Assembly (NCBI GenBank): GCA_024137785.1
Contig: JAHRHZ010000144.1
Span: 45,845,151 to 45,909,150, forward strand
DNA from: Ginglymostoma cirratum
Lineage: Eukaryota
Length of the DNA: 64,000 bases
Direction: 5' to 3'
Shown in pieces: positions 31,063 to 60,196 of this stretch. Below the pieces are notes generated by a model. That model was not told the origin of the DNA, did no database searches, and saw only the letters and a program-made list of their open reading frames with translations. A program made the translations under genes and the position numbers. The stretch's first letter is position 1, and the number at the start of each line of letters is the position of its first letter.

Positions 31063-31195
31063 ATAAAAACTGAAAGAACTGTGGATACTGGAAATCAGAA
31101 ACAAAAACAGTAATTGCTGGAAAAGCTCAGCAGGTCTGGCAGCATCTGTGGAGAGAAATCAGAGTTAATGTTTCGGGTCCAGTGACCCTCAGAAT
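31063..31195 (-). mobile_element. Penelope-type hammerhead-bearing fragment (family B)
   Basis: Minus strand CTGA-GGGTC-ACTG-GACCC-GAAA-CATTAACT then CAGATGCTGCCAGACCTGCTGAGCTTTTCCAGC. Confidence 0.65.
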
Positions 31196-31257
31196 AGAGT
31201 CACCCCAAACTGGCATTTGCTGGTCCAAATCCCAAATAGATCTTGATCTTCTGCTGG

Positions 31258-34100: not shown

Positions 34101-34194
34101 AGCTCTGAACCACTACCACCACCACTGCCCCCCCTTCCCTTCACCTCACCCTCTGTACCCCGCCTACCTGCTGGCCAACTTGTTTAAAGTCCTT

Positions 34195-35743: not shown

Positions 35744-35818
35744 GTGTGTGGTGAAAAGCATCGATTTGAAAAGCTAATGGAACACTTTCGAAATGAAGAC
35801 AATAACATTGACTTCATG
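35744..35818 (+). CDS. FMNL2: FMNL2 exon (~ex10, 75 nt, phase 0-0): [25 protein letters not shown]
   Basis: cctcag|GTGTGT ... TTCATG|gtaagc. Confidence 0.96.
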
Positions 35819-36119
35819 GTAAGCAATAGATGAACTTAATAAATCTTACACCCTTCATCAGTTCTTTGTCACAACGTATTAACCCTCCAGGTGAATTTCC
35901 TATGCTGATATCCACTGTGGATATACGTAATTAGCAAAATGTTGCACCAGTCAATGTCTGTGAGGTTATAGTTATAAACTTTATCTTCAGGCATCTCAAC
36001 TTTTTTTTTGCTTAACAATGCATTATTTTTCTTTTGAATCTATGCAACATTGCAACTTTTTAAAATCATTAATGGATATTTTATGGGTGTATCTCACAAA
36101 GTTTGTATTTATTACCCTT

Positions 36120-38330: not shown

Positions 38331-39338
38331 ATGTTTAAACTGTTAATGTGTAGAAAATGGTCAGAATTTGGTGGGGATCAATGAGAACCCTCTGCTGTGG
38401 GCTCAAACAGGGGAAAGAAAAACTGCTGTTGGATAAAATAATTGAATGATGTGGAGACTATTTATATCTGTACCACAAACCACAGCTATTTGCTGCATTG
38501 TAATAAAGAAGGTTGCAATGTGAATAATATTTCTTTCTGAGAATTAGCTGATAAAACATTGAAACTTAAATCTGTGATACTGGAGTTCCTTGACGTAAAA
38601 TGCTCTGTAATTCTGCATTATGGCACCATTTCCTTTATTGTTCAAACTTCTGACCATTGTCATTAATATAATGGAAGGAACCCAATTCCAAGTAAACTTT
38701 TTACTTCATTTATTGGGCTATTAACCACTTTAAGGTAACCTACATTCTTGGTTGAAAATGAAGACTTTCAACAATCTTTTGACACCCTGGTGGGAATGGG
38801 AGATCTCTTCTGCGTCCTCTCCTGAGCTCAAATGTCTCTTTCTCTCTGATTATCGTTTAGGCATAATAGTTAAAATGACTAATAAAACACTGGGTCTTTG
38901 AGTAACACCTGTAGTTATCATTTTACCACATGCCTAGGATTGCAATTTTATTCCTAAAGGTTTTCTTAACCAAATCATTCCAAACAAATACACACCAATT
39001 TGCACTTGAAAGACCTTGCGGTTTTAATGTTTTACTGATGTTCTCCGGATTCTGCGAAAATATTCAACAGGTTGTTTCAGAGAATGTAGTTGTTCTCAAG
39101 ATAATAGCACTCATTGTTATTGATGTTAACGCAGTTTTTAAAACAAAAACCAAATCATTATAACTGACAAGTGCTTTGAGTTATTATTACATTACTAAGT
39201 TGGATTATATGGTTTTCAATTCAAACTGAAAATTTAGTTATTATAGGATGAAGGTATGCTTTCTGTTTTACCAGTTGAATGTCTGAAGAGGTAATTCTAC
39301 CAGTTGTAATTTTTTTTTTAATCTTCTTTTGCTTCTAG

Positions 39339-39449
39339 GTGGCCTGTATGCAGTTTATTAACATCGTGGTCCATTCTGTAGAAGATATGAATTTTCGAGT
39401 GCATCTCCAATACGAGTTCACCAAATTAGGACTGGATGAATATCTGGAT
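39339..39449 (+). CDS. FMNL2: FMNL2 exon (~ex11, 111 nt, phase 0-0): [37 protein letters not shown]
   Basis: ttctag|GTGGCC ... CTGGAT|gtgggt; FH3 peptide. Confidence 0.96.
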
Positions 39450-41047
39450 GTGGGTATTCCTTCACTTAGTAACCAATGCAAGTTGTTTCACAATATTATT
39501 CCATTTCCTCGTCCAGAATCCATTTTGTTTTTCATCACAATAACAAATTACTGGTTTTGAGCGAGATGAATATCTGTGAATATAGAATGGATTTCTTAAA
39601 AAAAAATTGATTTTGAAGTTTCAAGATTATATTTCTTATTATTAAGTTTGATGGCTTTTGCAGCAGATATTGCCTTTACCTGACGCAAGTCAAGCTAATT
39701 TCCATTGGCCCAATCTTGGATGCCAGTTTACCTCAGAATCTGTTAGTAGTGTAAATAAATGAATAATGTAAGAAAAGTCCATATCCTAAAAATTCAAAAG
39801 GGAATAGAGAAGATGTGGCAATAACTTAATTGCCTAAAGAAGAAATTATGTTATTTACTATGGATTGATTTAGAAGATTTGGAACTATGTAAAGAAAGCT
39901 GTTGTGAATTATTATGTGTGCTATCTCACTGTAGCTTATGGATCGAATGAACCATCTGAGTAAGAAAGGCTTGACCTAAAGTTGTCTGAAACTTTAGTAT
40001 GCTGGAAAACAGATAGAAGAACAGTCATCCTTTAGATCACTTTGTTCTACTCTGTTAATTGGGATATATCCTGTTGAAAGTCAAAACATTAATGTTACTG
40101 GCTCAAATGCAGGTATTTACATTTTATACTGTTTTCTCCAGGGTTGTAGCTCAAGCATTAATACGACCTGAAAATAGATTGAGAGTCGATATTCAAGGGA
40201 ATCTCCCATTCTCTCCAAAATTACCTGCAATATACTGCACAATATCAGGCCATTCAGCCCCACTAGTCTCCTTAAGTACATCTACGCTTCTTGCACAATC
40301 AGGCCTCCTCGAGCCATTTCTTTTTCCTGTTAGTGAAGGGAGTCAACCTGTTCAGTCTTTCCTGATAGACATATACCTGTTCATTCTGGTGTCCTCCTGG
40401 AAAATCTTCACTGCACCATATCCAGCCCCTCTATATTCATTTTTTAATATGTTCACCATTTTCTAAGTTTGGTCTAACGAAGGTGCTAAACAAACTTAAC
40501 GTAATTCTTTGCCTTTTGATGTTATCCCACCAAAAGTGAGCACCATCTTATGGTGTTAATAACTTGTGCCATTAATTTTAATGAATTGTGTATTGGCATT
40601 CCCCTCGCCCATCATCCCTTTGTGCCATAATTAGATTTTATTTTCCAAGGACTCTTTATTCTTCCTGCTAAATGCAGCATCCTACACTTAACTGATTATA
40701 AGGAAAATACATCAGAAAGCGTTGATATGGAAGATAGGCATTGTCAAAACAGATATGCCAGAGAGGTCAAAACTGGGGGAATCACATAGACTGTAGGAGT
40801 GCTTAATATTGAAATGGAATGCAAATAGTAGAAAATAACCTATAATTCCCTATTAAATCTCTCTCAAAAATATAAGTTCAGTACATCATAAAGCCGAGGA
40901 GAGATGGTAGTGTAGTCTACAAAAATACGAACAGCTTATTACACTATCCAATTCCAGTGACCTTTTACTACTCTATTTTCCACCTTATTAAAGTAGCTTG
41001 GTAACTTGCTGCACGTGTAATGTTGAAAAATTGTCTTTTTTGTTTAG

Positions 41048-41197
41048 AAACTGAAAAACACGGAGAGTGACAAACTGCAGGTGCAGATACAAGCCTACTT
41101 GGACAATGTCTTTGATGTGGGTGCTTTACTTGAAGATGCCGAAACGAAGAATGCTGCCTTAGAGAGAGTGGAAGAACTGGAAGAAAACATTTCTCAT
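41048..41197 (+). CDS. FMNL2: FMNL2 exon (~ex12, 150 nt, phase 0-0): [50 protein letters not shown]
   Basis: gtttag|AAACTG ... TCTCAT|gtaacc. Confidence 0.96.
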
Positions 41198-41614
41198 GTA
41201 ACCATTGCTTTAAATTTTCAACTAAACTGCAGTGCCCAATCACTATGGTTTTTAAAAAGTGCATTTAATCATTAGTTGCAGCCGTAAAATAATTAATTTT
41301 GTTTTGAAATACTAGGAAATAACTTCAGAATCAGTGAACTGCTAACCAGGTTAGGGTACAAAAGTGGAATTATAGCTCTATTACTGGATAATAAAGCAAA
41401 GGATTTGCCCAGTGGAGAATGCCACAATAAGTAGACATCTGTGATGTTGTTATCACTTTGATAATTGAGACTCTTCAGGACTTCAAAGAATATTTTGTAG
41501 TGCAGATTAGCCTGTCAGTTTTGTCCGATGTGGTTATGAGTTGTGGTGTTTGGTAGATACGTTTTATTTAAAAAAGCATTAAATCTTATTCAGTGAATAA
41601 AATAATCATAACCA

Positions 41615-41725
41615 GACTCTCTCTCAACCGTCAGTCAAATGAATACAAATTGATTATTTGCTGTTCATAAGACTTTATAGGTGTACAAATTGGCACACCT
41701 GACACCAGTGACTGATGTTCAAAAT
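41615..41725 (+). mobile_element. 3' fragment of a Deu-domain SINE
   Basis: GCTGTT...GTGTACAAATTGGC...CAGTGACT resembles 19140-19200. Confidence 0.45.
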
Positions 41726-41729
41726 TAAC

Positions 41730-42565
41730 TTTTTTATTCATTCATGGGATGTGGACTAAGTCAGTGTTTATTGCCTATCACTAATTGCACTTGGGAAAAT
41801 ATTGGCAGGTATCTGCTGTGTCTTGTGTCCGCCCACAGTGTTGGTAGGAAGGGTGTTGTAGGTATTTGACCAAGTGAAGTAACAGTGATATTGTTCCAAC
41901 TCAGCATGGAGTGTGGCTAGGAGGTGGAGTTTCAGGTGGAGTTCCCATGCATTGGCTGCCCTGATACTTTCAGGTGCCAGGGATCGTGGGATTAGAAGAT
42001 TCTGTAAAAGTGACCTTGATGAGTTGCCACAGAGCGTCTGGTACATGGTATACACTACTGCTGCTGTGCATTGGTGGTGGAGGAAGTGAATATTAAAGGT
42101 GGTGGATGAGATCCAACCATTTGGGCTGCTTTGTCCTGGATGGTTTCAAGCTTCTTGAGTTTTGTTGGAGCTGCAGTCATCCAACCAAGTAGAGAGTATT
42201 CCATCACACTCCTCACACATGCACTGTAGATGGTGGACAGGCTCTGAGGAGCTGGAGGTGAGCTATTTGTCACAGAATTTCCAGCATCCGATCTACTTTT
42301 GTTGATACACTATTTATATAGCTCGACTAGTTCAATTGCTGATCAGTGATCATCACTAAGCAGTTGATGGAAGAATTCATAGACGCTAATGATGTTGAAT
42401 ATCAAGGGGAGGTGGTTAGAATCTCTTGTGTTGCAGGTGTTCATTTTCTGGCACTTCTGTGGCATAAATATCACTTTACCATCTACCAGCCCCAGCCTGA
42501 GTGTTGTCTATGCAGGCAGACATGGACTGTTCCAGTATCTGAGAGTTATGAATGGCACTGAATGA
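41730..42565 (-). mobile_element. CR1-group (L2/Crack-like) LINE 3' fragment
   Basis: ORF 42055-42273 PQSLSTIYSACVRSVMEYSLLGW...LETIQDKAA is an RT C-terminal motif; (ATTC)n-type tail at ~41737. Confidence 0.8.
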
Positions 42566-43169
42566 GATGCAAACAAAGTGATCGTTGGCGGCACCTTTTT
42601 AGTAAATACAAATACAAAGTATTAATTGAATACCTTAGCCATGCCCTCTGGCTCCACGTATTAAGCCCTTTTTTTGTCTGTAATTGACTCACTTCTTTTA
42701 TGAATCTCTTATTAATTATATACTTGGAAAGACTTTTAGATTCTGTCTTATTCTATCTGTTGGTCTTTTCTCATTCTTTCTGGTTTTCTTATAGCTTTCA
42801 CTTTTATTTTCAAATCTTACCTTGTCATCTATGCCCTTTATCTGCTTTGTCTTGCTCTCTATCCGTTTTTCCATTCAGGTAGCTCTGGCTTTCCTTCTCG
42901 TTTGTCTATACGCCAAATGTACCCAAACCATGTCATTTTCAAAGGCAGCCCGTAGGTCTGTTACTGATTCTCTGTGTCTTTGATTTCAGTTTACCTGAGT
43001 CAGATCCCTTCACATTGCACTGAAATTGCTCTTGCCCAATTAATTAGCTTTACTTTTCCCTTTTATGATGGAGGAAAAGGTGCTGATGAAGATGTTTGAG
43101 TCTCAAACAGTACCCTTCAACAACTTTAAACCAAGATGATTGATCTCCGACAAACACAGCTAGATTTGG

Positions 43170-43583
43170 GACAACGAGGTGTAGAGCTGGATGAACACAG
43201 CAGGCCAAGCAGCATCAGGGGAGCAGGAAAGCTGACGTTTTGGGTCTAGACCCTTCTTCAGAAATGGGGGAGGGGAAGGCGTCTCTGAAATAAATAGGGA
43301 GAAACGGGGAGGCGGACAGAAGATGGTTAAAGGAGAAGATAGGTGGAGAGGAGACGGACAGGTCAAGGAGGCGGCGTTGGAGCCAGTAAAGGTGGGTGTA
43401 GGTGGGGAGTTAGGGAGGGGATAGGTCAGTCCTATCCGTCTCCTCTCCATTTCAGAAGAAGGGTCTAGACCCGAAGCGTCAGCTTTCCTGCTCCTCTGAT
43501 GCTGCTTGGCCTGCTGTGTTCATCCAGCTCTACACCTTGTTGTCTCAAATTCTCCAGCATCGGCAGTTCCTACTATCTCTGTA
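43170..43583. mobile_element. Penelope-type inverted-repeat element (family A) with purine-rich spacer
   Basis: ~95-bp inverted arms; direct repeat ACAGCTAGATTTGG at 43156-43169 and 43584-43597; hammerhead-like cores at 43234-43261 (-) and 43453-43480 (+) with palindromic stem II GGGTCTAGACCC. Confidence 0.85.
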
Positions 43584-44368
43584 ACAGCTAGATTTGGCTC
43601 TTGTTTCCCCTTCAATTCAATTCATTGTCTTCAATTTGATTGGTTCCTGATGCCACACCCAGTCAGCGAGCAGGTTATGGCTGAATAAGTACTGTTTGGT
43701 GTATGGTCTGACAGCTTCAGTCCCTATGCTGATAAGTGATAGTAGTCTGGGAGCAATTGGCTGGGTTTGTCCTGTGCCTTGTGTACAGAACATACCCGGG
43801 CAAATTTCCACATTGCTGGGTAGATGTCAGTCTTGTAGCTGCACTGGAACAGCTAGGTTAGGACGTGGTGGGGTGGGGAAGTGTTAGTAGCTAGTTCAGG
43901 ACCAAGTGTCGGCTTCACTACAGCTTGAATGTACTTGAGGTCTTTTGCCTTTGCATTATCCATTGCATTTAATGATTTCTTTAAAACCTGGTTGAACAAA
44001 TTCAATTACCTAAAGACTGGTTTCTAAATGTGGGTAGCTCAGAATGAAATTCGATTTAGAATGAAAGATTAGATGGTGCTCAAAATAAAAGCAAGTTTGT
44101 CTCTTCTATATTATGTCCTGCAGTCGATGTTTCTTACTTTGCAGTTTATATTTTCCGATATTTCCCGCACCCTCATTTCCTTACAGCATTGACTCCTTGC
44201 TGGGATTCAGTGCCATGAGTGTTAGTTGCCTTTTGCTGCCTCACCTAAGCGGCTACCTTTAAACCTTGGTGCTGAGCACTGATGGGCTATTTAACAGCTA
44301 GTGAGAGTGTGTTGAAACTGAATCCCATCTTGTCCATTCCTCACCTTTGCATAGTTTTGCCAGACGCC

Positions 44369-45140
44369 ATAGAGTCATAGAGATGTACAGCATGGAAACA
44401 GACCTTTCAGTTCAACTCGTCCATGCTGACCAGATATCCTAAATTAATCTAATCCCATTTGCCAGCATTTGGCCCATATCTCTGCAAACCCTTCATATTC
44501 ATATACCCATCCAGATGCCTTTTAAAAGTTGTAATTGTACCAGCCACCACCACTTCGTCTAGCAACTTATTCCATACGCACACCACCCTCTGCGTGAAAA
44601 AGTTGTCCCTTAGGTCCCTTTTAAATCTTTCCTCTCTCACCTTACACCTATGCCCTCTAGTTTTGGACTTCCCCACCCCAGGGAAAAGACCTTGTCTATT
44701 TACCCTATCCATGCCCCTCATGATTATATTAACTTCTATAATGTCACTCCTCAGCCTCCAACGATCCAGCGAAAACAGCCCCAGCCTATTCAGCCTCTCC
44801 CTGTAGCTCAAGCCCTCCAATCCTGGCAACATCTTTGTAAATCTTTTCTGAACTCTTTCAAATTTGACAACACCTATCCTACAGCTGGGAGACCAGAACA
44901 GAACACAGTATTCCAAAAGAGGCCTAACCAATGTCCTGTACGGTCTCAATATGTCCTCCCAACTCCAGTACTCAATGACCAATAAAGGTAAGCGTACCAA
45001 ATGCCACCTTCACTATCCTATCTGCCTGCGACTCTACTTTCAACGAAGTATGAAGGTCTCTTTGATCAGCAGCGCTCCTCAGGACCTTAGCATTATAAGT
45101 CCTGTCCTGATTTGCCGTACAAAAATGTAGCACCTCACAG
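44369..45140 (-). mobile_element. Young CR1 (HER1-like) LINE 3' fragment
   Basis: ORF 44449-45000 (183 aa) YRTLVRPLLEYCVLFWSP...ERVQKRFTKMLPGL...FFTQRVVCVWN; (CATAGAGT)n tail. Confidence 0.92.
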
Positions 45141-45407
45141 TGATTGAATAATTGTTTGAAACAAGAAACCATGTGGATTTCCCCTACTTAACTACAATTG
45201 TAGTGCTCCTACTGCCACTCTAGCTGTGATCAAGGAACTTGCTTCAACTTGAAGTTCAAACCTAATTCTGAAACCTCATACTCTGGGGTTAAACTACTTC
45301 TTGCCTAGAATAATCAGTCTCCCAGACAAGCAGGCTGAATGCTGTTTTTTTGGACTGCTTATTGACCACTGCAAACAATAGACTAATATATCAAATTCTA
45401 ATTTCAG

Positions 45408-45509
45408 TTGTCAGAAAAGTTGCAAGATACTGAAAATGAAGCGATGGAAAAAATTGTGGAACTGGAAAAGCAGTTGATGCAAAGAAGTAAAGAACTGGAA
45501 GTTATAAGA
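45408..45509 (+). CDS. FMNL2: FMNL2 exon (~ex13, 102 nt, phase 0-0): [34 protein letters not shown]
   Basis: tttcag|TTGTCA ... ATAAGA|gtaagt; coiled coil. Confidence 0.95.
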
Positions 45510-45834
45510 GTAAGTTTGAGAGGATTTCTTTGCAGTCGTGAGAAACAATAGGTTTCAGATTGGTCTTCAGTAATCATGCGAATCAGCTGCTTGTTTTATG
45601 GGACAGAGAAACAGGCTACCAATTTGCTGTGAGTTTTTTTTTAAACTGTTGCGTAAACTAAATTAACTGCTTTCTATCCAAATTATTATCTTGATCAACT
45701 AATAAATGTTCCAAACCTGAGTTCAAACATAATTCAGACATTGTCAAAAACATCTTCCAACTTGCCAAGAGCAGCAGCATAATAACGCTGCATTAAATGT
45801 AAAAAAAAATTACTATTCTGTATAGCTTTATGTT

Positions 45835-46510
45835 AATTTTTTTCATTCTTTCACATGAATTTTTAAAAATTCTGTCATGGAATTTGCATGCTTCTGGCTG
45901 GGCCAGCATTTATTGCATGTCTCTAGATGACCTTGAGAAGGTGGTAGTGAGCTGCCCCTTCTTGAACCACTGCAGTCCAGTGCCCTTAAGGAGAGAACTT
46001 CAGGATTTTGACCTGGTGACACTAAAAGAACATTAATACATTTCCGAGCCAGGATGGTAAGTGGCTTGGAAGGGAGCTTGCAGGTGCTGGTGTTCCCCTG
46101 TATCTACTGTCCTTGTCCTTCATGGTGGAAGTAGTCATAGAAAGTGGTGTGTAAAGAGCTATGGTGATTTCTGCAGTATGACTTGTAGAAGGTATACACA
46201 ACTGTTAATGTACGTTAGTGGTAAAGGAAGTGAATGTCTGTGGATTTCGTGCCGATCAAGTGGGCTAATTTCTCCTGGATGATGTCGAGCTTCTTCTGTG
46301 TAGTTGGGTTGCACTCATCCAAGCAAATGGCACATATTCCAACACACTACTGACTTGTGCCTTGGAGATCGTGGACAGGCTTTGAGGTGTCAGGAGATGA
46401 GTTACGTTCTGCAGGATTCTCACCATCTGGCCTGCTCTTCTAGCAATAGTATTTATATTGCTGATCCAGTTCAGTTTCTGGTCAATGCTAATGCCCACGA
46501 TGTTGATTGT
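45835..46510 (-). mobile_element. CR1-group (L2/Crack-like) LINE 3' fragment
   Basis: ORF 46265-46498 GISIDQKLNWISNIN...LLTPQSLSTISKAQVSSVLEY. Confidence 0.8.
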
Positions 46511-46734
46511 GAGCTAAAGCAGCTATCCAGAAAAGGTTCATATGGATTAAGCAGAGCCCCCTTTTTCTCCAGTTCTTTGGTTCGAACTAAAATGATCAAT
46601 GTACAAAATGAGTGCATTGTGCAGGGCTGTCTGCAGGTTATCCCCATTTATCTGGCGCGATCTGTCTCTTCCCTGCTCACCAACGCAAAGTTAGCACATG
46701 TGAGCCAGTTTAGTGAGTACTGAGTTGAAACGAG

Positions 46735-46781
46735 TGTTTGTTAAATTTTGTAACATGTTTGTTAAATTTTGTAACATGTTT
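46735..46781. repeat. 21-bp perfect tandem duplication (TGTTTGTTAAATTTTGTAACA x2.2)
   Basis: Directly visible. Confidence 0.85.
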
Positions 46782-47579
46782 TAGTCTTTCCGAATTAATT
46801 AAGTTATATGGGGTATTAGGTGATCAGGGTGTGTTTGTTATTGTGTGCAGAGGGATGCCAGTCCCAATCAGACAGGTAGTTTGAAAGATTCTTTCCACTG
46901 CCAATTGTCAGGCACCAATCCAGATACCACAAGACTCAACAACTGCCTCAGACGCACAAGATTCAGTAATAACTGGCTTTGAAGTTTGAGGGCTTGCTCA
47001 GAGGTACCATGAGAACAATCAGGGTGGAAATGTCTTTGAATCTTTGGGTGAATTTAGTGCTGGCTTCGGGAGTTCTTACGTGCCTTCTGGAGGCCTGCTG
47101 ATTTAAAAAGAAGCTTTCTGTCTAGCCTCTTATGGGGGCTGAAACCGTGCTCCCCGATAGCTGCTGACCAATCAGAGGTTGGTGGTTCTCCATTGCCCGC
47201 CAGACCTACTGGGAGTGGTGATTGCTGCTAGTAAGGCACCCACCGGAGAGCTGAGGGTCACTGGGGGAGACCCAGACAATAGATGATTGAAGATTGGCTG
47301 GCAATTGCTGGCTAGATGAGGGCTAGAGAAAGGGTAATTGGGTGATTCTTCATGGGCTCTCCTTTCCAATGCTGCGTCACATGATCAGGCAATGAGAACC
47401 TTTGAAAAAGTGTTCCCCTCCATTCACACTTACTGTATGGTTACTCCCCCAGTTGATGACTGTCCACAAGTTCTCCTGCCCCTGACTCAAGCAGGCAGAG
47501 GGAGAAGGTGTCGGGGTCCCCACCCTGCATTGTCTTATCTGTTTAAGTGCATGACTCATGACTAAATCCACCAATTGAA

Positions 47580-47815
47580 TGCTGACCATGGAGTCATTAA
47601 GGCACAGAGGAGGCCATTCAGCCTGTTGCTCATGAGGGTGTTCGGTAGAACAATCCAATCTGTTCCATTCTCCCACTGTATCCTTGTTGCCCTGCAAGTT
47701 TCTTTCCCTTATATGCCCATCCAGTTTCCCTTAGAACATGTTTGTTGTCTCCACTTCTACCATTCTTATAGGCAGTGGATTTCAGTTCGTTATCACTTGC
47801 TATGTAAAAATGTAT
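47580..47815 (-). mobile_element. Old CR1 3' fragment
   Basis: GGCACAGAGGAGGCCATTCAGCC tail signature and downstream CR1-like sequence. Confidence 0.55.
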
Positions 47816-48694
47816 GAAGAAATGAAGAATTCCAAATCACCAGGACCAAGAGACTTGCAACCTGTTTAATTGACTTTTGTTGGAACGCATTCTAGTGTTC
47901 ATATTTGCAGTGGTCTTTTTGTTGACCTTTGCGTTGCCTTCACAACAATTTAGCATTGTAATTTTAAAGCAAAGCACACCTACACCAATGGGGCTTTTGA
48001 CTTTAGTTACAAATTATTTAACTCATTATGACTGGCTGTATACAAGTAAATGAAACTTACTTAATAAATAGAAAAGCAAATGGTACTTCTCACATTTTTC
48101 TGGCCTTCATGCTTCCAAGTATTGCACTCAGATTTCAATATCATTCAAAAAAATGTACAAGAAAGGGGGTTGCAAGTGCCTGCATTTTAAATGAGTATCA
48201 AGAATGGGGAAACCGGGTGGAAATGTAATGAATGATTCATGATTTGAGTTAGAGCATTTGGTTACATTTGGATTTTTATTTTAATTTGTGAGGGTATGAG
48301 CTTGGCTTGTTTTAAGGCATTTTTGTCCTTGTTTTTTTAAAATTCCAGACTTCCTCAGACTGTATAATGATTTGCTATACGTTTTCTGCAAATGTCCGTC
48401 AGATTGCATCATTAAGTATTTAAGAGATTTCTGTCTGATCTTCAAATCACTGGGATTGCTAGTGGTATCTTTGCAAGTTCATATCTTACTTCAATTTTTC
48501 AACATCAGTATGAAATTTGAAAATGTTTTGACAATTAATAGTAAGTGAAGCAATATCAATTTTCTTGTGGTAACGTATGAAGGAAAGGCAAAGGGAACCA
48601 TTTGGATGTGATATGAAAGTGCTGCATAAAGTGCAAATCCGACATTTTGTTTATTGTCATTTTTTTGTGTTTTCTTTTTCTTTCCACTTCCTAG

Positions 48695-48992
48695 GAGGTT
48701 TACAAAGATACCAACACCCAGGTACACACACTACGGCGAATGATCAAAGAGAAGGAGGAGACCATACAAAGACATAACCACCTAGAGAAAAAAATCCATG
48801 AATTGGAGAAGCAGGGGTCTATCAAAGTCCAGAAGAAAGGAGATGGTGACATTGCCATTGTACCAGTTTTATCTTCTACAGCACTGTCTCCAGGTGCAGA
48901 GCACATATCCACTCTTTATACAGGACCACCGCTTGAGGCATCAGGATCAATGCTACCCCTTCCCCCGCCACCTCCATGCCTGCCAGGTGCAG
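48695..48992 (+). CDS. FMNL2: FMNL2 exon (~ex14, 298 nt, phase 0-1): [22 protein letters not shown]...[11 protein letters not shown]...[12 protein letters not shown]
   Basis: tcctag|GAGGTT ... GTGCAG|gtaagg; coiled coil into start of FH1. Confidence 0.94.
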
Positions 48993-49665
48993 GTAAGGCA
49001 TTTTTGAGATTGACTTTGAAATTAATTGCAAAATATAGGAAACTGGGGACTAAACATGGTACAATTCCATTACCTTTGTGGTGTGGCAGTAACTGCGGGC
49101 ACAATCTTCCAGACCCAGAAGCAATGGACCTAGTGATGGAAAGTGAACTTAATTTGGCAGAATGATGGTGGACCAGAATCTCACCAAATTAGTCACCACT
49201 TACGGGTATTATCCTGCCTGGTCTGCATTTAGTTCAGTTCCAAAATGGATTGTGAAGAGTTGGCGGACACAAATAGCTTGACCAGTGCAGATGGGCTATC
49301 AGATTGGAAATCAAGGTGCCACAATCTGCACTAATTTGTACATGACTGGGGAACTGGACCTAGGGCAGGAGTGTGACTGCTACAAGCCTCCCCTTGCCTT
49401 TGCTTCCTACACTCATGCCCTCTTTCCCTACAACTCTCAAACCCAGAAGGCCCCCATGGGCAATGCTTAGGCTTTCCATCGGTGATCCTCCACTGAGAAA
49501 GCCTCGGGTTTGTTGTGCCCACAGTAGGCACTGCCTGGGCCATGGTGCTGCTGAGTTCTGAAGTTGCCAGCCTTTTATTGGTTGGCATTGCCAAGTGTGT
49601 GGGACTGCTTTGTCCAGGGTCCTGATTCCATCAGAAAGCCTGACAACAGCCCATCCCCAAAGGTT

Positions 49666-50285
49666 TAGGGATGTACAAGGTGTAGAGCTGGATGAACACA
49701 GCAGGCCAAGCAGCATCAAAGGAGCAGGAAGGCTGATGTTTCGGGCCTAGACCCTTCTTCAGAAATTCTTCATTTCTTCATTTCNNNNNNNNNNNNNNNN
49801 NNNNNNNNNNNNNNNNNNNNNNNNNNNNNNNNNNNNNNNNNNNNNNNNNNNNNNNNNNNNNNNNNNNNNNNNNNNNNNNNNNNNNNNNNNNNNNNNNNNN
49901 NNNNNNNNNNNNNNNNNNNNNNNNNNNNNNNNNNNNNNNNNNNNNNNNNNNNNNNNNNNNNNNNNNNNNNNNNNNNNNNNNNNNNNNNNNNNNNNNNNNN
50001 NNNNNNNNNNNNNNNNNNNNNNNNNNNNNNNNNNNNNNNNNNNNNNNNNNNNNNNNNNNNNNNNNNNNNNNNNNNNNNNNNNNNNNNNNNNNNNNNNNNN
50101 NNNNNNNNNNNNNNNNNNNNNNNNNNNNNNNNNNNNNNNNNNNNNNNNNNNNNNNNNNNNNNNNNNNNNNNNNNNNNNNNNNNNTCAGCCTTCCTGCTCC
50201 TCTGATGCTGCTTGGCCTGCTGTGTTCATCCAGCTCTACACCTTGTATATCTCAGATTCTCCAGCATATGCAGTTCCTACTATCT
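49666..50285. mobile_element. Penelope-type inverted-repeat element (family A) spanning the assembly gap
   Basis: Inverted arms either side of the Ns; direct repeat CATCCCCAAAGGTT at 49652-49665 and 50286-50299; minus-strand CTGAAGA-A-GGGTCTAGGCCC-GAAA-CATC at 49735-49762. Confidence 0.8.
49785..50184. other. Assembly gap (400 N)
   Basis: Run of N. Confidence 0.99.
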
Positions 50286-50832
50286 CATCCCCAAAGGTTG
50301 TCTGATTGCCAGAATACCCACCAGGCTTTCTCACCATAGTAGACCAATGCTTTCCATTCCTGGAAACTCTCCTGCTCTTAGGTTTAGTCTGCAAATAGGA
50401 AGAACCTAGCTGATTTTGCAATTTTAGTCGAGAATCTTAATTTTGTGTTACAAAAACGTATATCCACGAGTATCTCTTGGACGTGTGTGACCCTGAAGAA
50501 TTACATAATAGGAGCTAAACTTGACTGGAAAGACTAGGCAAACACAATGAAGATAATTGTATTCTATCTAAACCTCCCCTACCCACTAGGAAGAACATTC
50601 TCTTCGTAGTAAGTTGACGTTTTCTGCTGTAATTCTGAAATTATAATGTAAAATTATAGCCATGTGTTTAATGTGAATTTTCTGCTGACATGTTTAGATA
50701 ACTGCTTCTGAAAGCCAGTATCGTCCAATAGCCTTCTTTGCATGCAAGAAGCAAATGTTTGCTGGGTTGGCACTGGTATTTGGGTCATTTCTGGAAGCTG
50801 AATATAACTTCTGTTTTTTGTGTTTCTGGCAG

Positions 50833-51015
50833 TGCAAAATGGACCAGTGTCAGTCCAAGCATCATCACCTCTTCCCCCTCCTCCTCCACCACCACCTCCA
50901 ACGGCAGAAGCTCCACCTGCTCCTCCTCCCCCACCACCTCCACCACCGCCGCCACCAGCAGCTCCTCCATTGCCAGGGGCAGCCCCGACTCTGATTTTTA
51001 ATCCTGGCTTAGCAG
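50833..51015 (+). CDS. FMNL2: FMNL2 exon (~ex15, 183 nt, phase 1-1): FH1 polyproline exon VQNGPVSVQASSPLPPPPPPPPPT...APTLIFNPGLA
   Basis: tggcag|TGCAAA ... TAGCAG|gtaata; (CCN)n proline runs. Confidence 0.93.
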
Positions 51016-51354
51016 GTAATACTATGGTATATAGTCACAAACTGTTTCATAGGTACCTAGTTCGCGGGGGATGACACTAATTGATCATTTCATGAGTTCA
51101 GGAATATATAATGAACTTTGGGTGAAAAAATTGGGTTGCCTTATTTGGATATAAAAAGGAATACTCAGCACGACAGCAGGAGTTTGCTTCCTTCATATTC
51201 TAAACCGGCTAGTAAAGTTGGTGTGGCTGTAGGTGAAGATATGGGTTACTTCATTTGTGGCTTTCAGCTAGAGATGCTATGGCGCCACTTACAACACAAA
51301 GGTGGAGACGGTGTGCTAATGATTGTGGGTGGCTCCCACCAACATGCGGGACCT

Positions 51355-51409
51355 AACAAGCATGGGGCTGGATGAACACAGCAGGTCAAGCAGCATCATC
51401 GGAGCAGGA
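51355..51409 (-). mobile_element. Short family-A arm fragment without hammerhead
   Basis: GCTGGATGAACACAGCAGGTCAAGCAGCATC..GGAGCAGGA matches ~43186-43228; GGACCT on both flanks. Confidence 0.7.
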
Positions 51410-52040
51410 CCTGTTTGGTGCCAGGATGGCTCCTTGTCGTTTTCCTTCCTCCATTTTCTGACCGTCAGCCACGTGGACAGGCTGGCTGGTAGGAAAGCTA
51501 GTGGCAGGAGGCAGTTTGAAAAGATCAACGCTTGGTGAGAGGGAATGTTCCAACTCCGGCAATCAGAGCGAGGGAAGGAAAGAGGGAGCGTCGGTCGGGC
51601 CAGGAATCATCCAGTGTAGGCAACTTGAGATTGAAGTTTTAAAGGTGTTTCGGGGGAGAGTGGGAGGGAGGGTGATATCAGTCAAATTGCTGCAGTTAAG
51701 AAAGGCTAAAGGTTGACTTGAAAGGCTGTTGGAGTACTTTTCTCGTCTACACAGAGAGCTCTAAGAGACACATACCTTCTGTAACCTGCTGCTTCTGACT
51801 GCAGTTCGTTGCCGTAGGTTGTGGATACACTTTTTGATTTGTTTCTTTAACTCACAGGTCCGTCAGAAGGTGAAAACTTACAGAAAGGGGCAAGTTACTG
51901 AAGGGCGTTTGGCAATTGGGATATGTATTTTGTATTCTTTCCGTATCATAGTCCTGATCTCGGGTTGCCTCTGATAGCAGTTGGCAACTAAAGACTTTTA
52001 GACAGAAAACAAAAATTCTCCTCCTCATGGAGAGAGACTT

Positions 52041-52343
52041 AGAAGAATCCCTACAGTGTGGAAACAGTCCCTTTGGCCCAACAAGTCCACACTGACCCTT
52101 GGAGCATCCCACCCAGACCCATCCCCTTATAACCCACACACCCCTGAACACTATGGGCAATTTAGCATGGCCAATCCACCTAGCCTGCACATCTTTGGAC
52201 TGTGGGAGGAAACCAGAGCAAACCCACACAGACACAGGGAGAAAGTGCAAACTCCACACAGACAGTCACCCGAGGCTGGAATCGAACCCGGGTCCCTGGC
52301 GCTATGAGGCTGCAGTGCTAACCACTGAGCCACCGTGCTGCCC
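52041..52343 (-). mobile_element. HE1-type (V-domain) tRNA SINE, full length, intact Pol III boxes
   Basis: Minus strand GGGCAGCACGGTGGCTCAGTGGTTAGCAC...; A box TGGCTCAGTGG (52322-52332), B box GGTTCGATTCC (52278-52288); CR1-like 3' tail. Confidence 0.9.
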
Positions 52344-53107
52344 TAGAGTGAGCAAAAACTGAGCAAGTCATACTATACATTCCTCACCACCATCTGGCAG
52401 TAGGTTCAAGACCTTCAGTTATGTGAGTCTGGAAATGATTGGTAATTTAGACACAAACGTTTAAAAACTCAATGGAGGGAAGGAGAAGAAAAAGTAATAG
52501 AATTGGAAAAATGGAAGGAATGTCAAAAGAGGAAAACTCCTGGTGATTTTTCTTTACCAAAAATGGCTCCTGTGTCCTTTGATTGATAGAGAAGAGGGAA
52601 TGAAGAAATTGGGACAGAAAAGAGAGAATAACGATGAATGGTGAGAGAAATTAAATGCCAGTAACAAAGATTCATCATACAATTTTAAAAAAATCTGAGA
52701 ATGCCTTTTGATTTAAAAAAGATAAGCAAAAGATTGGATTGGAATTTGTGTAACATAGTGGTCCCATTATGACTACTAGATGTAAAAACAACATACACAG
52801 ATCAATGAGGTTGCATCTACAATATGGCTATGCATTGTAGTTGGCTTATGGTAATCTCATAATAATCTTGTGGTAAATTGAAAACTTTACAAAGTAAAAT
52901 ATTGAACAAGCAATGTCATGACAAATCTATGCAATTTGTAATTCTGAGTTCTGTCGGTGGTAAAATTGTGTGCAATAAATTTCCTAAGTTACTTCCTCCA
53001 TGAGAGTGCTTGGCAATGATAAATGATTTCTGCTATCCCTTGCACATTGTATGACTTCTCTTCTGCTAACCTATCTTTCTTTGTCTACCCTTCTGCTTCC
53101 ATACAAG

Positions 53108-53128
53108 AGGGACCAATCAAGCTGTTCT
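53108..53128 (+). CDS. FMNL2: Candidate alternative 21-nt microexon of FMNL2 (phase 1-1), giving ...GLA-EGPIKLFS-VKIKKP...
   Basis: Branch-like TGCTAAC (53064-53070), long pyrimidine tract, TGC at 53094-53096, acaag|AGGGACCAATCAAGCTGTTCT|gtaggt; frame-preserving with no stop. Confidence 0.75.
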
Positions 53129-54429
53129 GTAGGTTTCTTTACGCTGTATTGATGCATTACACCGTGTCTGTCTTTCAAGCAGTGATATGTGTTGTTGAGT
53201 GTGGTTCTTTCAGTGCATTTTACTCCACAAAATTAGAGCACACCAAGCAGTTTATCTGAATGTGTCCCACAGTTTTTGTGTGTCCAGTAAACTTTGCCTA
53301 CTTGAAATTAATCATAAATTCCGTAACTGCGCTGTTTGATATTTTTATTAAAGATTCCAAGAGTTAGTATAATTGGATGATTCACAGTTTTGTTGAAAAA
53401 GACAATGTTTTTGTTGGTATTATTAAGTACTGAAGTGAATCAGTTCACTTATGTGCAGTAATGATCAGGCTGGGTGGCTGCAACAATCATTTTGTTCTCA
53501 TTCACAGACTCTAAATATAGTATGTGCTTTTGTTTTGTATATTATGGATTGAACTGTGAAAATCTGAATTTGCACTGAAAGATTCTGTGTTTTAGACTAT
53601 TTCTCTTGTTTGTCGTAGACTATGCATGCCCCAAGTAGAAACTCTTGATTTTAATAGAGTTAGCAGGTGTGTTCCATTTGAATGTGTTCACTGCTAATCT
53701 GTTAATTATGAAGTTAGATGACGTAACTGGAGTCAGAGCACTGTAGACCATCATATTTCAACTTAAGTTGCGAATTCAAATTACAGGAAATTGCAACTTG
53801 ATCGTGCAATTGCATGCTTCTGACTTTGAATGATGTATTGAATAACTTGTTGATTTCCAAATGGTTTTGATATTACAGTTGTCTATGCAATACCCTGTAC
53901 ATTCACCAAGACAGTTTTATCACATTTGGTCATTCAGTGATCTGGGAGAAGTTACACGTTCAGTCTGTGCCAAAACTAGCCAACAAAACCTTAGGAATAA
54001 TTTGGTTTTCTCTTAGCCTGGAGCTCTAAATCTAATGGTCTGAAAAGAATTAATATACAACCTGATCTGCAATGCTGCATATCAATATCCAGGTTGTTTC
54101 CCTCAGAGTCAGTGAGGAAAACAATAAAGATAAATTTGCTAATTGACTGTACTATATGCCTCTGTACTCACTAATGGAGCCTCCGAAATTCCAATCATCA
54201 GTAATGTACACTTTCCTAGAATATCGTTTTTATGAAAAGTAATAATAATCAATTAATTTGCCGTAATTAGGTTCTTAGACAATGCAGACTCTTGAATTTT
54301 GTAATTGCATGAGAATGGCTCATACTTACTGATTGCGAGAGCAGTGAACATTTGGACAAAATTTAACTTAGTATGTTCTGATGGCTTAAATGATGATGAT
54401 CAATGTCAAAAGAACTTCTTTTTGTGCAG

Positions 54430-54554
54430 CTGTGAAGATCAAGAAACCTATCAAAACAAAATTCCGTATGCCAGTCTTTAACTGGGTGGCACTGAAGCCC
54501 AATCAGATAAATGGCACTGTGTTCAATGACATTGATGATGAGAGAATTCTAGAG
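54430..54554 (+). CDS. FMNL2: FMNL2 exon (~ex16, 125 nt, phase 1-0): [42 protein letters not shown]
   Basis: gtgcag|CTGTGA ... CTAGAG|gtacat; start of FH2 (lasso). Confidence 0.96.
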
Positions 54555-54704
54555 GTACATCTTCAGTTTAATATTTTTGTACAAGAATACATATGAATTT
54601 GAAACTTATTAGATATTTAAAACCATGTCTGCTGATTTACGTTTCCACTAAGTTGAGTAAATGGAGCACTACATTTGCCTATGTGTATGAATTTTACTTT
54701 ACAG

Positions 54705-54907
54705 GAACTGAATGTGGATGAGTTTGAAGAAATATTTAAAACAAAAGCTCAAGGGCCGGCCATGGATGTAGTTTCTAATAGACAAAAGGTGATCCAAAGG
54801 GGATCAAACAAAGTGACGTTGCTTGATCCCAACAGAGCCAAGAATCTTGCCATCACATTGCGAAAGGCAGGAAAAACCACTGATGAAATATGCAGAGCTA
54901 TCCAAAT
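54705..54907 (+). CDS. FMNL2: FMNL2 exon (~ex17, 203 nt, phase 0-2): [18 protein letters not shown]...[25 protein letters not shown]
   Basis: ttacag|GAACTG ... CAAAT|gtgagt; preceded by a 150-nt intron. Confidence 0.96.
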
Positions 54908-55109
54908 GTGAGTAATTGAAATCTCTTCAGCAAACAAAATCTTGCTGATCTACATTTTCAATCTTTTGTCTTGAGAGGAGAGAGGAGATTATTTAGTTTT
55001 TCTCTGTTTTCACCTCTCTATTACAATATTTTCAATATGTATGCTTGCTGTATACAGTCTTGAGGATTGGGAGAGTTTTTAAATTTAGCAAATGAGAACC
55101 AAGTTGTCA

Positions 55110-55625
55110 ACAACACTAGAGGGAATAGAATCTGAATGTAAACTAGCAAGCTTACATTATGAACATAGGAACAGATGTAAAATCTACTATAGAGATGTAA
55201 AAAGGAAATGTTAACAAAAAAGTAAATGTGAGTCCTTTACAGGCAGAGTCAAGACAATTTATGATGGGAAATAAGGAAATAGAAAAGAAGCGAAATAATT
55301 ATTTTGTGTCTGCCTTCACAGAGGAAGGTACAAGAAATCTCAAATAATAGAAATACAAAGGATTAGTGAGAATAACGAACTGAAAGAAATTATTATTAGT
55401 AAAAATGTAGTACCAAAGAAATAAGCGGGGATGAAAGTTGACAAGTACCTGGTGATCTACGTCCTAGAGTGTTCAAAAATGTGGCTATAAAAATAGCGAA
55501 AGTATTGTTGGTCATCTTTCAAAATTCTGTAGACTCTGGAATAGTACCTGCAGATTAGAAGGTTGCAGATTTAACACCACTATCTAAGAAAGGCGGAACG
55601 GAGAAAACGTGGAACTACAAACCTT
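55110..55625 (+). mobile_element. CR1 ORF2 middle fragment
   Basis: GTACCTGCAGATTAGAAGGTTGCAGATTTAACACCACTATCTAAGAAAGGC...AACTACAAACC corresponds to VPxDWKxANVTPLFKKG...NYRP. Confidence 0.7.
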
Positions 55626-55916
55626 ATCAATTCTTTCAGTAGTTCAACAGGTTTATTCAAGTGAATAGCTATGAAAAAACACCCCAGCAAGGAATGTGTC
55701 CTTAGAACAGGGCCGACGAGAGGAAAATTTTAAAATTGGACTGAACCTGTCAATAGTATGTTCAAACTTAATGTTTTTCTCTGTAAATAAAAATGACTTT
55801 GTAATGATTATGACATTATATGTTGCTTACCTTTGTGTATTAGAAATATTCTCCTACTGAAAGAAATAATGCATTTATCTTAATTTGTGTTTGAATTTTT
55901 GTTTGATTTCTATTAG

Positions 55917-56151
55917 GTTTGACCTGAAAACATTACCTGTAGACTTTGTTGAGTGCCTGATGAGGTTCTTGCCAACAGAAAATGAGGTTAAGGTTCTGAG
56001 ACAGTATGAAAGAGAGAGGAAGCCATTGGAGAATCTAACAGACGAAGACCGGTTTATGATGCAGTTCAGTAAAGTTGAAAGACTAATGCAGAGAATGACC
56101 ATTATGGCATTCATTGGAAACTTTACAGAGAGTGTTCAGATGCTGACACCA
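55917..56151 (+). CDS. FMNL2: FMNL2 exon (~ex18, 235 nt, phase 2-0): [23 protein letters not shown]...[13 protein letters not shown]
   Basis: tattag|GTTTGA ... ACACCA|gtaagt; FH2. Confidence 0.96.
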
Positions 56152-56589
56152 GTAAGTACTTGACTCCATGACAATCTAAATTTTAATTGGTTGAAAGATT
56201 TATCTTTGCTCCCACACATTCCTCTTTGAACTTATCCCATGTCCCTCCTGATCTCATCTAATCCTTGTGACCACCTCTTATTTTCTCAACATGATCACAG
56301 CTACACTGCTAATTATGCAGTTCCGCTGGCTAATACTGTAAATTGCCTCTCCTTTGGTGTGTTCCCTATCTTCCTTTTAATCTCTGCAATCATCTTTGAT
56401 AAAGAAAAAAGTCAGTTATCACTCCTGCTGTACTTTTAATGTACCAAACCCATCTCCAACTTCACTTCTTTACCCAAAGTCTTTGAAAGTCTTAATCGTT
56501 CTCAAATGAATGTTCATTTTTTGCAGGACAATTGTATATTTGAACCTCTGTAATCGTGTATCTAGCTGATATGGCTCTTTATCTACAAC

Positions 56590-57885
56590 AGGTACCTGGA
56601 TTGAAATAGATGAATAGGCTACCCCAAGGGTCTGTCTTGGCCACAACCCTGTTAAACCAGCACACCAATTTATCTAGCATTAAACCAGTCCCAGAGGTTT
56701 ACCTATGCTTAGATATACCTAGACCAGTTGTTAGTTTTAAAGCTGAGATAAACACATTTTTGTTAAGCAAAGATATTAATGAATATAGGCCAAAAGCAGG
56801 TATATGAAGTTAGGCCACATGATCTCATTAAACAGCAGAACAGGCTCAAGGGGCTGAATGGCCTACTCTTGTTCCTATGTTCCCATGTTCCTGTGTCACA
56901 GACTGAAGTATGTCAGGAGCCAGAAGGTGCATTAAGTTATGACATTGCAAAGTGTGCTGACTACTGGACAACATGATGCCTAAAACTAAGAAAAAGTTAA
57001 AAATCTCTAGCACGTTTTACCTTCACGATTTCAATGCTAAGAGGATACTGAACATAGCCTTAGATGCCCAGAGTCTAGAGCAGGAACACCATCCTGTTTT
57101 ATCTAGATGGCTTTCTTGACTGAACCCTCACATGCAGACAGCACCTGACTTCAAGACTGAAGAAAAAATTAAAATGACAACACAACAATAGACAAAAGCA
57201 ACGACAACAGTAAACCAACCAGTACCTTATAAGGATTAAAGACCAAAATAGTGAGGACCCCTCATGTACTCGACTCCCAAATACGGCATTATAGGTATGG
57301 TACCAAACTGCCCACATCAAACTTATTGATGTACAATTTAACTAACTAGCATGCACTATCACAGATACTCATCAACTAACACACCTCCCCTGATACTCAG
57401 TAGTGAACAATTTTGTATCCCAACCAACCCTCACATGAAGATGGCATATGTTAACAGGCAAGCTACTGGTGAAGCTGTACTCCAACCTAGGTCTGCCCAT
57501 TTTCAATCACCACCTGACCCCACCAGCACTTCATATTTCCTCATGTTAAACCCACCATGACAACGAGGACTAGCTGAGGACCTCTGACAGAAAGTATATC
57601 AGGAGAAAACTTCCATCAGAAACCACGTTCTCATTGTCGACCCTGCTGCTTGTCCAGCCAGCCTTCATCTCCCATGGTGATAGTGGATCCTTTTAAAACT
57701 ATTTCCAGACTGGTGTAGGCCTCTGTGCAGCTGTCCGTCACCAGTGAGATTGCCAAGACCATCCACTGCAACTTTCAGGCAGTCCAGCTATTGACTCAGC
57801 TTGAAAGTGTGCTCAAAGAAGTCCTTCTACCACTGACAAGGCTTTTGCTTGGCTCTCAGATAACGCAAATGCTAAATAAGTAAAT
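56590..57885 (+). mobile_element. Decayed Vingi/Ingi-like non-LTR retrotransposon (RT to 3' end)
   Basis: NRLPQGSVLATTLLNQHTN; ALSYDIAKCADYW; remnants like FYLHDFNAKRILNIALDAQSLEQEHHPV; C-terminal FQTGVGLCAA; TAAATAAGTAAAT tail. Confidence 0.6.
56724..56891 (+). mobile_element. CR1 3' end nested in the Vingi-like element
   Basis: TTTAAAGCTGAGATAAACACATTTTTG...GGGGCTGAATGGCCTACTCTTGTTCCTATGTTCC. Confidence 0.75.
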
Positions 57886-57949
57886 TACTGCTGAAATCAC
57901 AGTGATTGAAGTTTGGTTTATCAAGAATTGGTTAAGTTGTGAATCATGC

Positions 57950-59612
57950 AAGAATGTAGCTCAGGAAAGGGTAGGTCCACTCAAGGACAAAGGAGGGAGT
58001 TTATGCGTGGAGCCAGAGGAAGTAGGTGAGGTGCTTAATGGGTACTTTCTCCTTGGTGAATACCAATTCAGGAACATGGATGATAGTAAGATTAGGAAGG
58101 GGCATGTTGATATTCTGATAAATGTCGATATTGAGGAGGAGGTGCTGACTGTCTTGCAAAACATTTAAAGTAAATGTCTCACCAGGGCCTGATGGGGTCT
58201 ATGCCAGGAAATTGAAGGAGGAAAGGGAAGAGTTTGCTGGGGCCTTGACAGAGATCTTTGCATTCTCTTTAGCCACAGGCCACAGAAGAATGGCAAATAG
58301 GTAATGTTGTTCCTTTGTTTAAGAAGGGAAATTATAGGCCAGTCAGCCTTATATCAGTGGTATTTGGACTTATTTGGGATAGTCAGCATGACTTCATGAG
58401 GGGGAAGTCTTATTTCTCAAATTTGAGTTTTTTGAGGAATTAATGAAGACGATAGAGGGTAGGGCAGCGGGCTGTTGTCGACATGGATTTTATTAAAGCG
58501 TTTGACAAGGTCCCTCATGGTAGATTGGTCCAGAAGATTAAGTCATATGGGATCCACAGTGAGCAAGCTGGATGCAAAACTGGCTTGGTCACAGAACACA
58601 GGTTTAGTTGTGGAAGGGTGTTTTTTCTGACTGGAGGTGTTCTGCAAAGATCATTACTGGGATCTTTGTTGTTTGCAATATATATATATAAATGATTTGG
58701 ATAAAATGTAGGTGGGCTGATTAGTAATCTCGTAGATGATACAAAAATTGATGGAGTTGTAGATAGTCAAGAAGTTTATCAAGGTACAGCAGGATATAGA
58801 TCGGTTGGAAAATTGGACGGAGAAATGGCAGATGGTGCTTAATCCAGATAAGTGTCAGGTGATATATTTTGGAGATCAAATACAAGACGAAAGTATACCA
58901 TGAATGGCAAGCCCCATAAGAGCACTGATATATAGGGGGATCTTGGGGTGGAAGTCCATGGCTTCATGAAACTGGCAACACAAGTGGATGAGGCGCTAAA
59001 GAAGGAATACAGCATGCTTGCCTGCATCGGTTGGGGCATAAAGTATAAAAGTTGCAAAGTCATGTTTTAGTTGTATAAGACCTTAGTTAGGCCACATTTG
59101 GAGTATGGTGTGCAGTTCTGGTCACCACACTAAAGGATGGAATTGGAGGCTTAGGAGAAAATGCAAAAGAGATTTACCAGGACGTTGCTATGAGGAGAGG
59201 TTGGACAGACTTAGATTGTTTTTGCTAGAGTGTCAAAGGCTGAGGGGTGACTTGATAGAAATATATTAAATTAGGAGAGGCATGGAGGGGATGGATAGTT
59301 GGAGTCTTTTTCCCAGGTCACAAATGTCAAATACAAGGGGGCGTAGGTTTCAGGTGCAAGGGGAAATGTTTAAAAGAGATGTGTGAGGAAGGAGGGCACA
59401 CAGAGGGTAGTAGGTACCTGGAACACACTGCCAGGGTGGTAGAAGCAGATATAACAGCAACATTTAAGAGGCATTTAGACTGACACATGGACAGGCAGAG
59501 AATAGAGGGATATGGACCATGTGCAGACAGATGGAATTTGTTCAGAGCGACATCATGGTCAGCACAGTTATCGTGGGCTGAAGGGTCTGCTCCTCTGCTG
59601 TACTGTTCTATG
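57950..59612 (+). mobile_element. CR1 LINE ORF2 3' half to tail, decayed
   Basis: ERVGPLKDKGGSLCVEPEEVGEVLNGYF; MDFIKAFDKVPHGRLVQKIKSYGI; ends CTGCTGTACTGTTCTATG. Confidence 0.9.
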
Positions 59613-59986
59613 CAAAACAACAAACCAGCTCGGCAAGCCAGCCAACCTCAGCATGTCCTATCGCTGAAACGAATGTTGTAATGTACGAGGCATTCAGCCT
59701 TGGAAAGCATCACAAATGAGACTAATTCTGTCATTAGCAAATACCAACATGATAAACAGGAAAGGGTACTATATCAGAAATCATGCATTCACTATGGCCA
59801 AGGCCTAACAATTCGGTGGCATAAATTGAATTTCTGACTTTTCTGTATAACTCAACCTCCCTGCTTCAAACAACTATTTTGATAAAGTGAATCTCTCAGT
59901 GCAAAGCTTGCTAATTTGTGAATTATTAAGAATGCAGCTCATTTTTAAACCCAGTTAATCATTAGCCTTCTTTCTTTCTGCTTTAG

Positions 59987-60055
59987 CAACTCCATGCTGT
60001 AATAGCTGCGTCTGTATCAATAAAAGCATCTCAAAAATTGAAGAAAATTCTGGAG
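59987..60055 (+). CDS. FMNL2: FMNL2 exon (~ex19, 69 nt, phase 0-0): [23 protein letters not shown]
   Basis: ctttag|CAACTC ... CTGGAG|gtaagt; FH2. Confidence 0.96.
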
Positions 60056-60196
60056 GTAAGTTGCAATTATCTTAATGTCTGATAGTATAACTCTACCTAG
60101 AACAGAAATAAGACAATAGTATTCTTGCAAGTGGGGTTATTTTCAAACCATTCTTGTAAAAACTATACACTAAAATATGAAAAGTATATATCCTTA

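Follow-up and report, generated by a model that had tools for sequence, protein, structure and literature searches.

Six neural-regulated exons have been described in formin genes, among them FMNL2-A, a frame-keeping microexon adjoining the FH2 domain (PMC12056172; Polinski et al. 2025), which that paper draws from Table S2 of Irimia et al. 2014 and from VastDB. After listing the formin exons, the paper follows DAAM1, and its preprint version agrees. The DAAM1 microexon (HsaEX0018410) is neural and SRRM3/4-dependent, is present from sharks to humans and lengthens a flexible segment of the protein; it alters actin polymerization, as tested in vitro and in mice (PMC12056172). A neural frame-disrupting exon of mammalian FMNL3 is also mentioned in the same source.

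A further exon has been described in zebrafish fmnl2b. In the supplement of PMC12626424, DreEX0033111 is 21 nt long, is classed as MIC_Neural and has a neural dPSI of +87.19. Its dPSI in srrm3/4 mutants (dPSI eMIC mutant) is −40.22, and its PSI rises from 0–6 in early embryos to 87–98 at 4–7 dpf. The row assigns no human orthologue to it (NO_G_ORTH), and the zebrafish table of this supplement holds no row for fmnl2a. As for splice signals, PMC12871342 reports that the branch points of neural microexons lie far from the acceptor (a median of 45 nt, against 34 nt) and that UGC is often present. In the examined supplementary files of PMC7935315 (12 of 19), the only FMNL2 exons were those of 47 nt and 69 nt, and the microexon was not found in the examined supplements of PMC12868881, PMC7821500, PMC12626420 (12 of 13 files) and PMC12056172 (three PDFs). 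Full-text searches for 'GPIKLFS', and for FMNL2 together with microexon and lamprey, returned no paper; a paper testing the function of an FMNL2 microexon was likewise not found among the freely accessible papers searched.

The window analysed here is a stretch of 64,000 nt (64 kb) from the shark Ginglymostoma cirratum. Using tblastn with FMNL2 of Chiloscyllium plagiosum, part of the FMNL2 gene, from exon 3 to about exon 19, was located on the + strand (2459..60060, the end being approximate). Residues 68–824 of the C. plagiosum protein map exon by exon to the window, mostly with 90–100% identity, and the protein encoded in the window matches human FMNL2 (4yc7) with an E value of 3e-241. The gene belongs with FMNL2 rather than FMNL1 or FMNL3, as C. 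plagiosum FMNL2 falls in an FMNL2 clade with 100/99 support. Elsewhere in the same genome two further paralogues were found, which are 85% and 71% identical over exon 16. Exon 15 (50833..51015, + strand) encodes the FH1 polyproline tracts and a conserved linker ending in ...PGLA, and closes with a phase-1 donor, while exon 16 (54430..54554, + strand) encodes the start of FH2 (lasso, ...FNW). The 77-nt and 75-nt exons of the window match mouse exons 4 and 10 (PMC13738527), which confirms the numbers 15 and 16 that the earlier note had given to these two exons. Intron 14 contains a run of 400 N at 49785–50184. Also, intronic frames at 57880–59480 and 7930–8280 resemble, by eye, decayed reverse-transcriptase fragments, which we take to be of the LINE family.

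Between exons 15 and 16 lies a 21-nt cassette microexon of phase 1-1 (53108..53128, + strand), delimited from the sequence and from an identical insert in the RefSeq models of C. plagiosum. Its frame is open, and its size is within the 3–27 nt range of frame-preserving microexons. Inclusion keeps the reading frame and changes GLA-A-VKI to GLA-EGPIKLFS-VKI, followed by the rest of VKIKKP, so that one Ala is replaced by EGPIKLFS (a net gain of seven residues). The earlier note had placed here a branch point, a pyrimidine tract, a TGC, an acceptor, a 21-nt exon and a donor, and had derived this peptide from the phase 1-1 fit; on re-reading the sequence, each element was found at the positions it had given, and translation returned the same peptide. 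The pyrimidine stretch free of AG that it described is present as well, but its length was understated, since the zone without AG spans 99 nt and not about 30 nt.

This AG-free zone (53007..53105, + strand) is the longest among the 18 acceptors in the window. It includes the predicted branch point TGCTAAC (53064..53070, + strand; branch A at 53069, or −39), which we assign to this role from its sequence, and a pyrimidine tract (53070..53100, + strand) with 27 pyrimidines in 31 positions. A UGC motif (53094..53096, + strand) stands at −14 from the exon start, with the TGC 9 nt before the acceptor AG, and is a candidate SRRM3/4-response element. The acceptor itself is a weak AAG (53105..53107, + strand), the sole AAG among the 18 acceptors, and has the third-lowest predicted pairing of them. 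Strong donor sites are a feature of SRRM3/4-dependent neural microexons. In the donor GTAGGT (53129..53134, + strand), +5G and +6T match the consensus, and the exon side (TCT) does not. Measured against the benchmark of PMC12871342, the distance from branch point to acceptor is extended, with a branch A at −39, 27 of 31 pyrimidines, 99 nt without AG and the AAG, although the position of this branch A falls just halfway between the two medians given there (45 and 34 nt). A UGC is present upstream of the microexon, yet 6 of the 17 other acceptors likewise have a TGC no more than 25 nt away, and TGC by itself does not discriminate the microexon from them.

In addition, three TGCATG hexamers (53623, 53811 and 54306; 53623..54311, + strand) are present in the downstream intron. 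TGCATG is an RBFOX-type motif. It occurs three times in the 1301 nt of the downstream intron, is absent from the 2092 nt of the upstream intron and occurs 30 times in the 64-kb window; these hexamers may help inclusion, on weak grounds. The density of YCAY in the two flanking introns was not above that of the window. A search with a combined microexon pattern gave one match on the + strand, at this site, and none on the − strand in the 64 kb, while 2 of 100 local shuffles gave one match with the same pattern. As the site was already known when the pattern was devised, conservation provides the better proof.

The RefSeq set of C. plagiosum FMNL2 contains the identical insert in five of seven isoforms (X1, X2, X3, X5 and X7), and isoforms X4 and X6 skip it. 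A homologue search with residues 582–625 of the inclusion form gave 205 proteins, the best 120 of which were listed. Overall, 51 of 396 proteins carried the insert (332 of the 396 with the FH2 anchor), under a search pattern that itself required G, K, L and S. The variants were EGPIKLFS (15), DGPIKLFS (15), EGLLKLFS (8), EGPIKLYS (6), EGPLKLFS (2) and five singletons; four of the 51 carriers are models that join the insert to atypical upstream sequence. The carriers include sharks, gar, teleosts, frogs, turtles, birds, a bat and Mus caroli. In lampreys, an 8-residue form of the insert replaces the same Ala, so the conservation extends from lampreys and sharks to two mammals. An alternative acceptor 2 nt downstream, which would give a 19-nt frameshifting exon, was considered and rejected, as all database inserts fit the 21-nt form.

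The exon behaves as a cassette in the database models of 10 species, for which both forms are present. Isoform pairs of the same species differ by exactly 7 aa in Chiloscyllium, Engystomops, Salmo salar, two Oncorhynchus species, Caretta and Lepidochelys, and by exactly an 8-aa segment in two lampreys; the bat Hipposideros likewise has both the inclusion and the skipping form. In the isoform sets compared, the insert is the sole 7-residue in-frame difference outside the C-terminus. Several database FMNL2 models contain other short inserts at the exon 15–16 junction, which start with G or GN/GK. These resemble read-through into intron 15 and probably reflect errors in modelling the surroundings of the microexon.

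The insert is not found everywhere. It was present in none of the 13 Callorhinchus models among those listed (at most 15 members per cluster) and in none of the eight listed models of Carcharodon, Heptranchias and Heterodontus. Among the listed models, it was also absent from four of rat and seven of Tamandua, and the single human FMNL2 cDNA protein examined does not carry it. It should be noted that the presence of the insert in gene models depends on which tissues were sequenced.

For this shark itself, 4 of the 17 listed runs under the species label were aligned on 52950–54950, none of them recorded as RNA (runs X1 and X2 were guessed to be RNA). In contigs of runs X1 and X2, which have no tissue label, exon 16 is spliced to exon 17, and the loose ends upstream of exon 16 carry the 3′-terminal sequence of exon 15 (50982–51011), which corresponds to the skipping form. 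The upstream junction was read from these loose ends only, as the aligned stretch excluded exon 15. Although a 21-nt exon may escape alignment, its inclusion would have been visible in the loose ends next to exon 16. None was seen in the contigs of X1 and X2. Among the raw-read runs, X14 gave two intronic reads and X15 gave none, too few to serve as a test. In this genome, then, only skipping was seen, from the contigs of two runs. These contigs, together with the absence of the insert from the models listed for four further cartilaginous fishes, would fit an explanation in which an intronic sequence resembles a microexon by chance or as a relic, and this shark never splices it in. We regard this as very improbable, because the same peptide forms the insert in five of seven isoforms of C. 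plagiosum, whose FMNL2 exons share mostly 90–100% identity with those of the window, all the splice signals are intact and the site is the sole pattern match in 64 kb.

Based on the above results, we suggest that the site is a conserved 21-nt FMNL2 exon, likely switched by SRRM3/4 in neurons, which adds seven residues and is predicted to fine-tune the handover of profilin-actin; we give this reading a probability of roughly 0.8. With a weak AAG as acceptor, an exon body of only 21 nt and a donor that departs from the consensus on its exon side, skipping would be the default. SRRM3/4 quite probably acts through the UGC in the long stretch from branch point to acceptor, and would thereby promote neuronal inclusion. 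Inclusion would then place seven further residues between FH2 and the final polyproline run of FH1. The spacer from the last run of at least five prolines to the FH2 start (VKIKKP) would grow from 20 to 27 residues, and the distance from the last proline run to the lasso Trp from 37 to 44 residues.

A longer spacer would be expected to shift FMNL2 nucleation or elongation modestly. For yeast Bni1, elongation rises roughly twofold when a tethered profilin is shifted from 22 to 38 residues away from FH2, and nucleation responds biphasically to the profilin–FH2 distance (bioRxiv 10.1101/2025.05.09.653129). By this measure, a change of seven residues at such distances could have a modest effect in FMNL2. 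However, these data come from yeast with tethered profilin and from another protein than FMNL2, which would count against their support for a spacer. The tuning of FMNL2 actin assembly through the spacer may thus be put forward as a conceivable protein mechanism, one with a little less than even odds by our own weighing. The strong sequence conservation of the insert would fit a pure spacer poorly.

This conservation suggests another possibility, in which exon and regulation are unchanged and the added residues work as a motif, through their specific sequence and not as a spacer. The alternating hydrophobic-basic stretch I-K-L-F-S-V-K-I-K, which the insert lengthens, would serve as a docking surface for the lasso/post of FH2, for actin or for a partner in neurons. 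Only conservative variants occur among the 51 inserts (E/D-G-P-I-K-L-F-S in 30, EGLLKLFS in 8, these from lampreys, EGPIKLYS in 6 and others in 7), and the insert length is fixed at seven residues (eight in lampreys), whereas FH1 length varies among species. Furthermore, the flanking linker is also conserved (PTLIFNPGLA, PTVVFNSGLA), and in FMNL3 the corresponding site lies a few residues into the FH2–actin crystal construct 4eah. However, no partner of the insert is known, and the conservation could partly stem from splicing constraints on a very short exon, so we treat docking as a tentative idea that is rather doubtful. In the AlphaFold monomer of the inclusion form, the mean pLDDT was 54.9 and values were below 50 over residues 494–636, which include the insert and the lasso; the model is therefore uninformative here and was left unused.

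It is also conceivable that the neural microexon has little or no measurable effect on the protein alone and is kept by weak selection within the SRRM3/4 programme. Such an outcome would agree with PMC12626424, which favours a model of many mild combined effects, with the title of PMC12626420, which reports a minimal impact of microexon removal, and with the Mendelian ratios of Fmnl2 null mice at P21 (PMC13738527). We nevertheless consider it unlikely, as the exon has survived in lineages as distant as lampreys and mammals, both teleost duplicates have kept it, and the formin microexon of DAAM1 does change actin polymerization (PMC12056172). The exon is of interest as a natural two-state variant at the FH1–FH2 junction, which provides a way of asking if living neurons tune this spacing and if the conserved I/L-K-L-F/Y motif binds a partner.

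The lamprey form dates the exon to early vertebrates. The 8-residue form was found in 8 of the 15 listed members of lamprey 'FMNL2'. In FH2 trees, the lamprey gene branches outside the clade of FMNL2 and FMNL3-like sequences, with 97/95 support in a tree of 26 rows (two short rows dropped) and 94/95 in a tree of 16 rows. The AU test rejects a grouping of lamprey with FMNL2 alone (p = 0.025), but this grouping was specified once the first tree was available. The labels FMNL1-like, FMNL3-like and outgroup were given to representative sequences in these trees on the basis of exon 16, and the trees include a long FMNL3-like branch. In the equivalent intron of the shark FMNL3-like gene, a relaxed scan gave six candidates, none resembling the FMNL2 insert. 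No such insert was present in 27 longer paralogue-like or outgroup-like rows among the listed 50%-identity representatives, a weak negative because isoforms are collapsed at this level. The trees and scans suggest that the exon arose before the FMNL2/FMNL3 duplication and was lost in FMNL3, which is a lead rather than a result and possibly new. A bolder version joins this history to the motif: a sequence-specific neuronal switch that predates jawed vertebrates would come from the FMNL2/FMNL3 ancestor, be kept in FMNL2 and in both teleost copies and be lost in FMNL3, and would alter how the FH2 entry engages profilin-actin or a neuronal partner. We hold this to be improbable as a whole, but if true, it would be a second, mechanistically different retuning of a formin by the microexon programme, beside the DAAM1 linker exon.

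Two microexon-like elements were observed in the shark paralogues. On the reverse strand of the FMNL1-like gene (near position 6580 of the reversed locus), a 6-nt element lies in the intron equivalent to that of the FMNL2 microexon, with an upstream TGC, a CAG acceptor and a GTAAGC donor; in phase 1 it would change T-T-G-L-K to T-T-A-Y-R-L-K. It is one of five candidates of the relaxed scan, and neither RNA nor protein evidence turned up for it, the proteins covered being the listed 50%-identity representatives. On the reverse strand of the FMNL3-like gene (near position 2403 of the reversed locus), an 18-nt element lies between the equivalents of exons 14 and 15, with a GACTAAC branch point, a TGC, an AAG acceptor and a GTGAGG donor. 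It contains a stop codon in phase 1 and would thus be a poison exon, one that might conceivably correspond to the frame-disrupting neural exon of mammalian FMNL3 (PMC12056172).

The existence of the exon is not news, as it is annotated in many vertebrates. The earlier note had guessed that it might already be present in predicted isoforms, and this was borne out, with exact and near matches to EGPIKLFS, from lampreys to mammals, in the search of vertebrate FMNL2 isoforms that it had proposed and with the insert in RefSeq models of many vertebrates. For the same reason, the novelty that it implied does not hold: the literature already names a neural microexon of FMNL2 next to FH2 (PMC12056172), and RefSeq models carry the insert. 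Its view of the site as a neural microexon of the SRRM3/4 type at the FH1–FH2 junction is very likely correct, given the zebrafish table, from which it is extended to the shark. The FMNL2 exon is real and for the most part known already, and it very likely figures in existing catalogues of neural microexons.

Compared with FMNL2-A, the shark exon lies in the same gene, keeps the frame and adjoins FH2, the insert ending where the FH2 match starts; neural regulation is a feature described for FMNL2-A, and probably only the species differs, the comparison being with its published description. DreEX0033111 is likewise 21 nt long and belongs to an FMNL2 duplicate, and its neural and srrm3/4-dependent use was recorded in zebrafish; it is likened to the shark exon by the data of its row, which gives no position relative to FH2. 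Teleost proteins of the fmnl2b type have a 7-aa insert at the same junction as shark FMNL2, and three insert-bearing teleost proteins group with Esox fmnl2b at 100/100 in the tree. The teleost b copies read EG[P/S]LKLFS, compared with EGPIKLFS in the shark, and the introns flanking the exon in zebrafish fmnl2b are a few hundred nt long, compared with 2092 and 1301 nt here. We thus infer, with high confidence, from these descriptions that the shark exon corresponds to both FMNL2-A and DreEX0033111. The isoforms of C. plagiosum (XP_043549683.1, XP_043549685.1 and others) have the identical EGPIKLFS at the identical place as the shark window, but they are computed gene models of a close relative, without tissue information. 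Finally, the DAAM1 microexon lies inside FH2, in the linker between lasso and knob, and adds 9–10 aa, whereas the FMNL2 exon lies before the lasso, at the FH1–FH2 junction.
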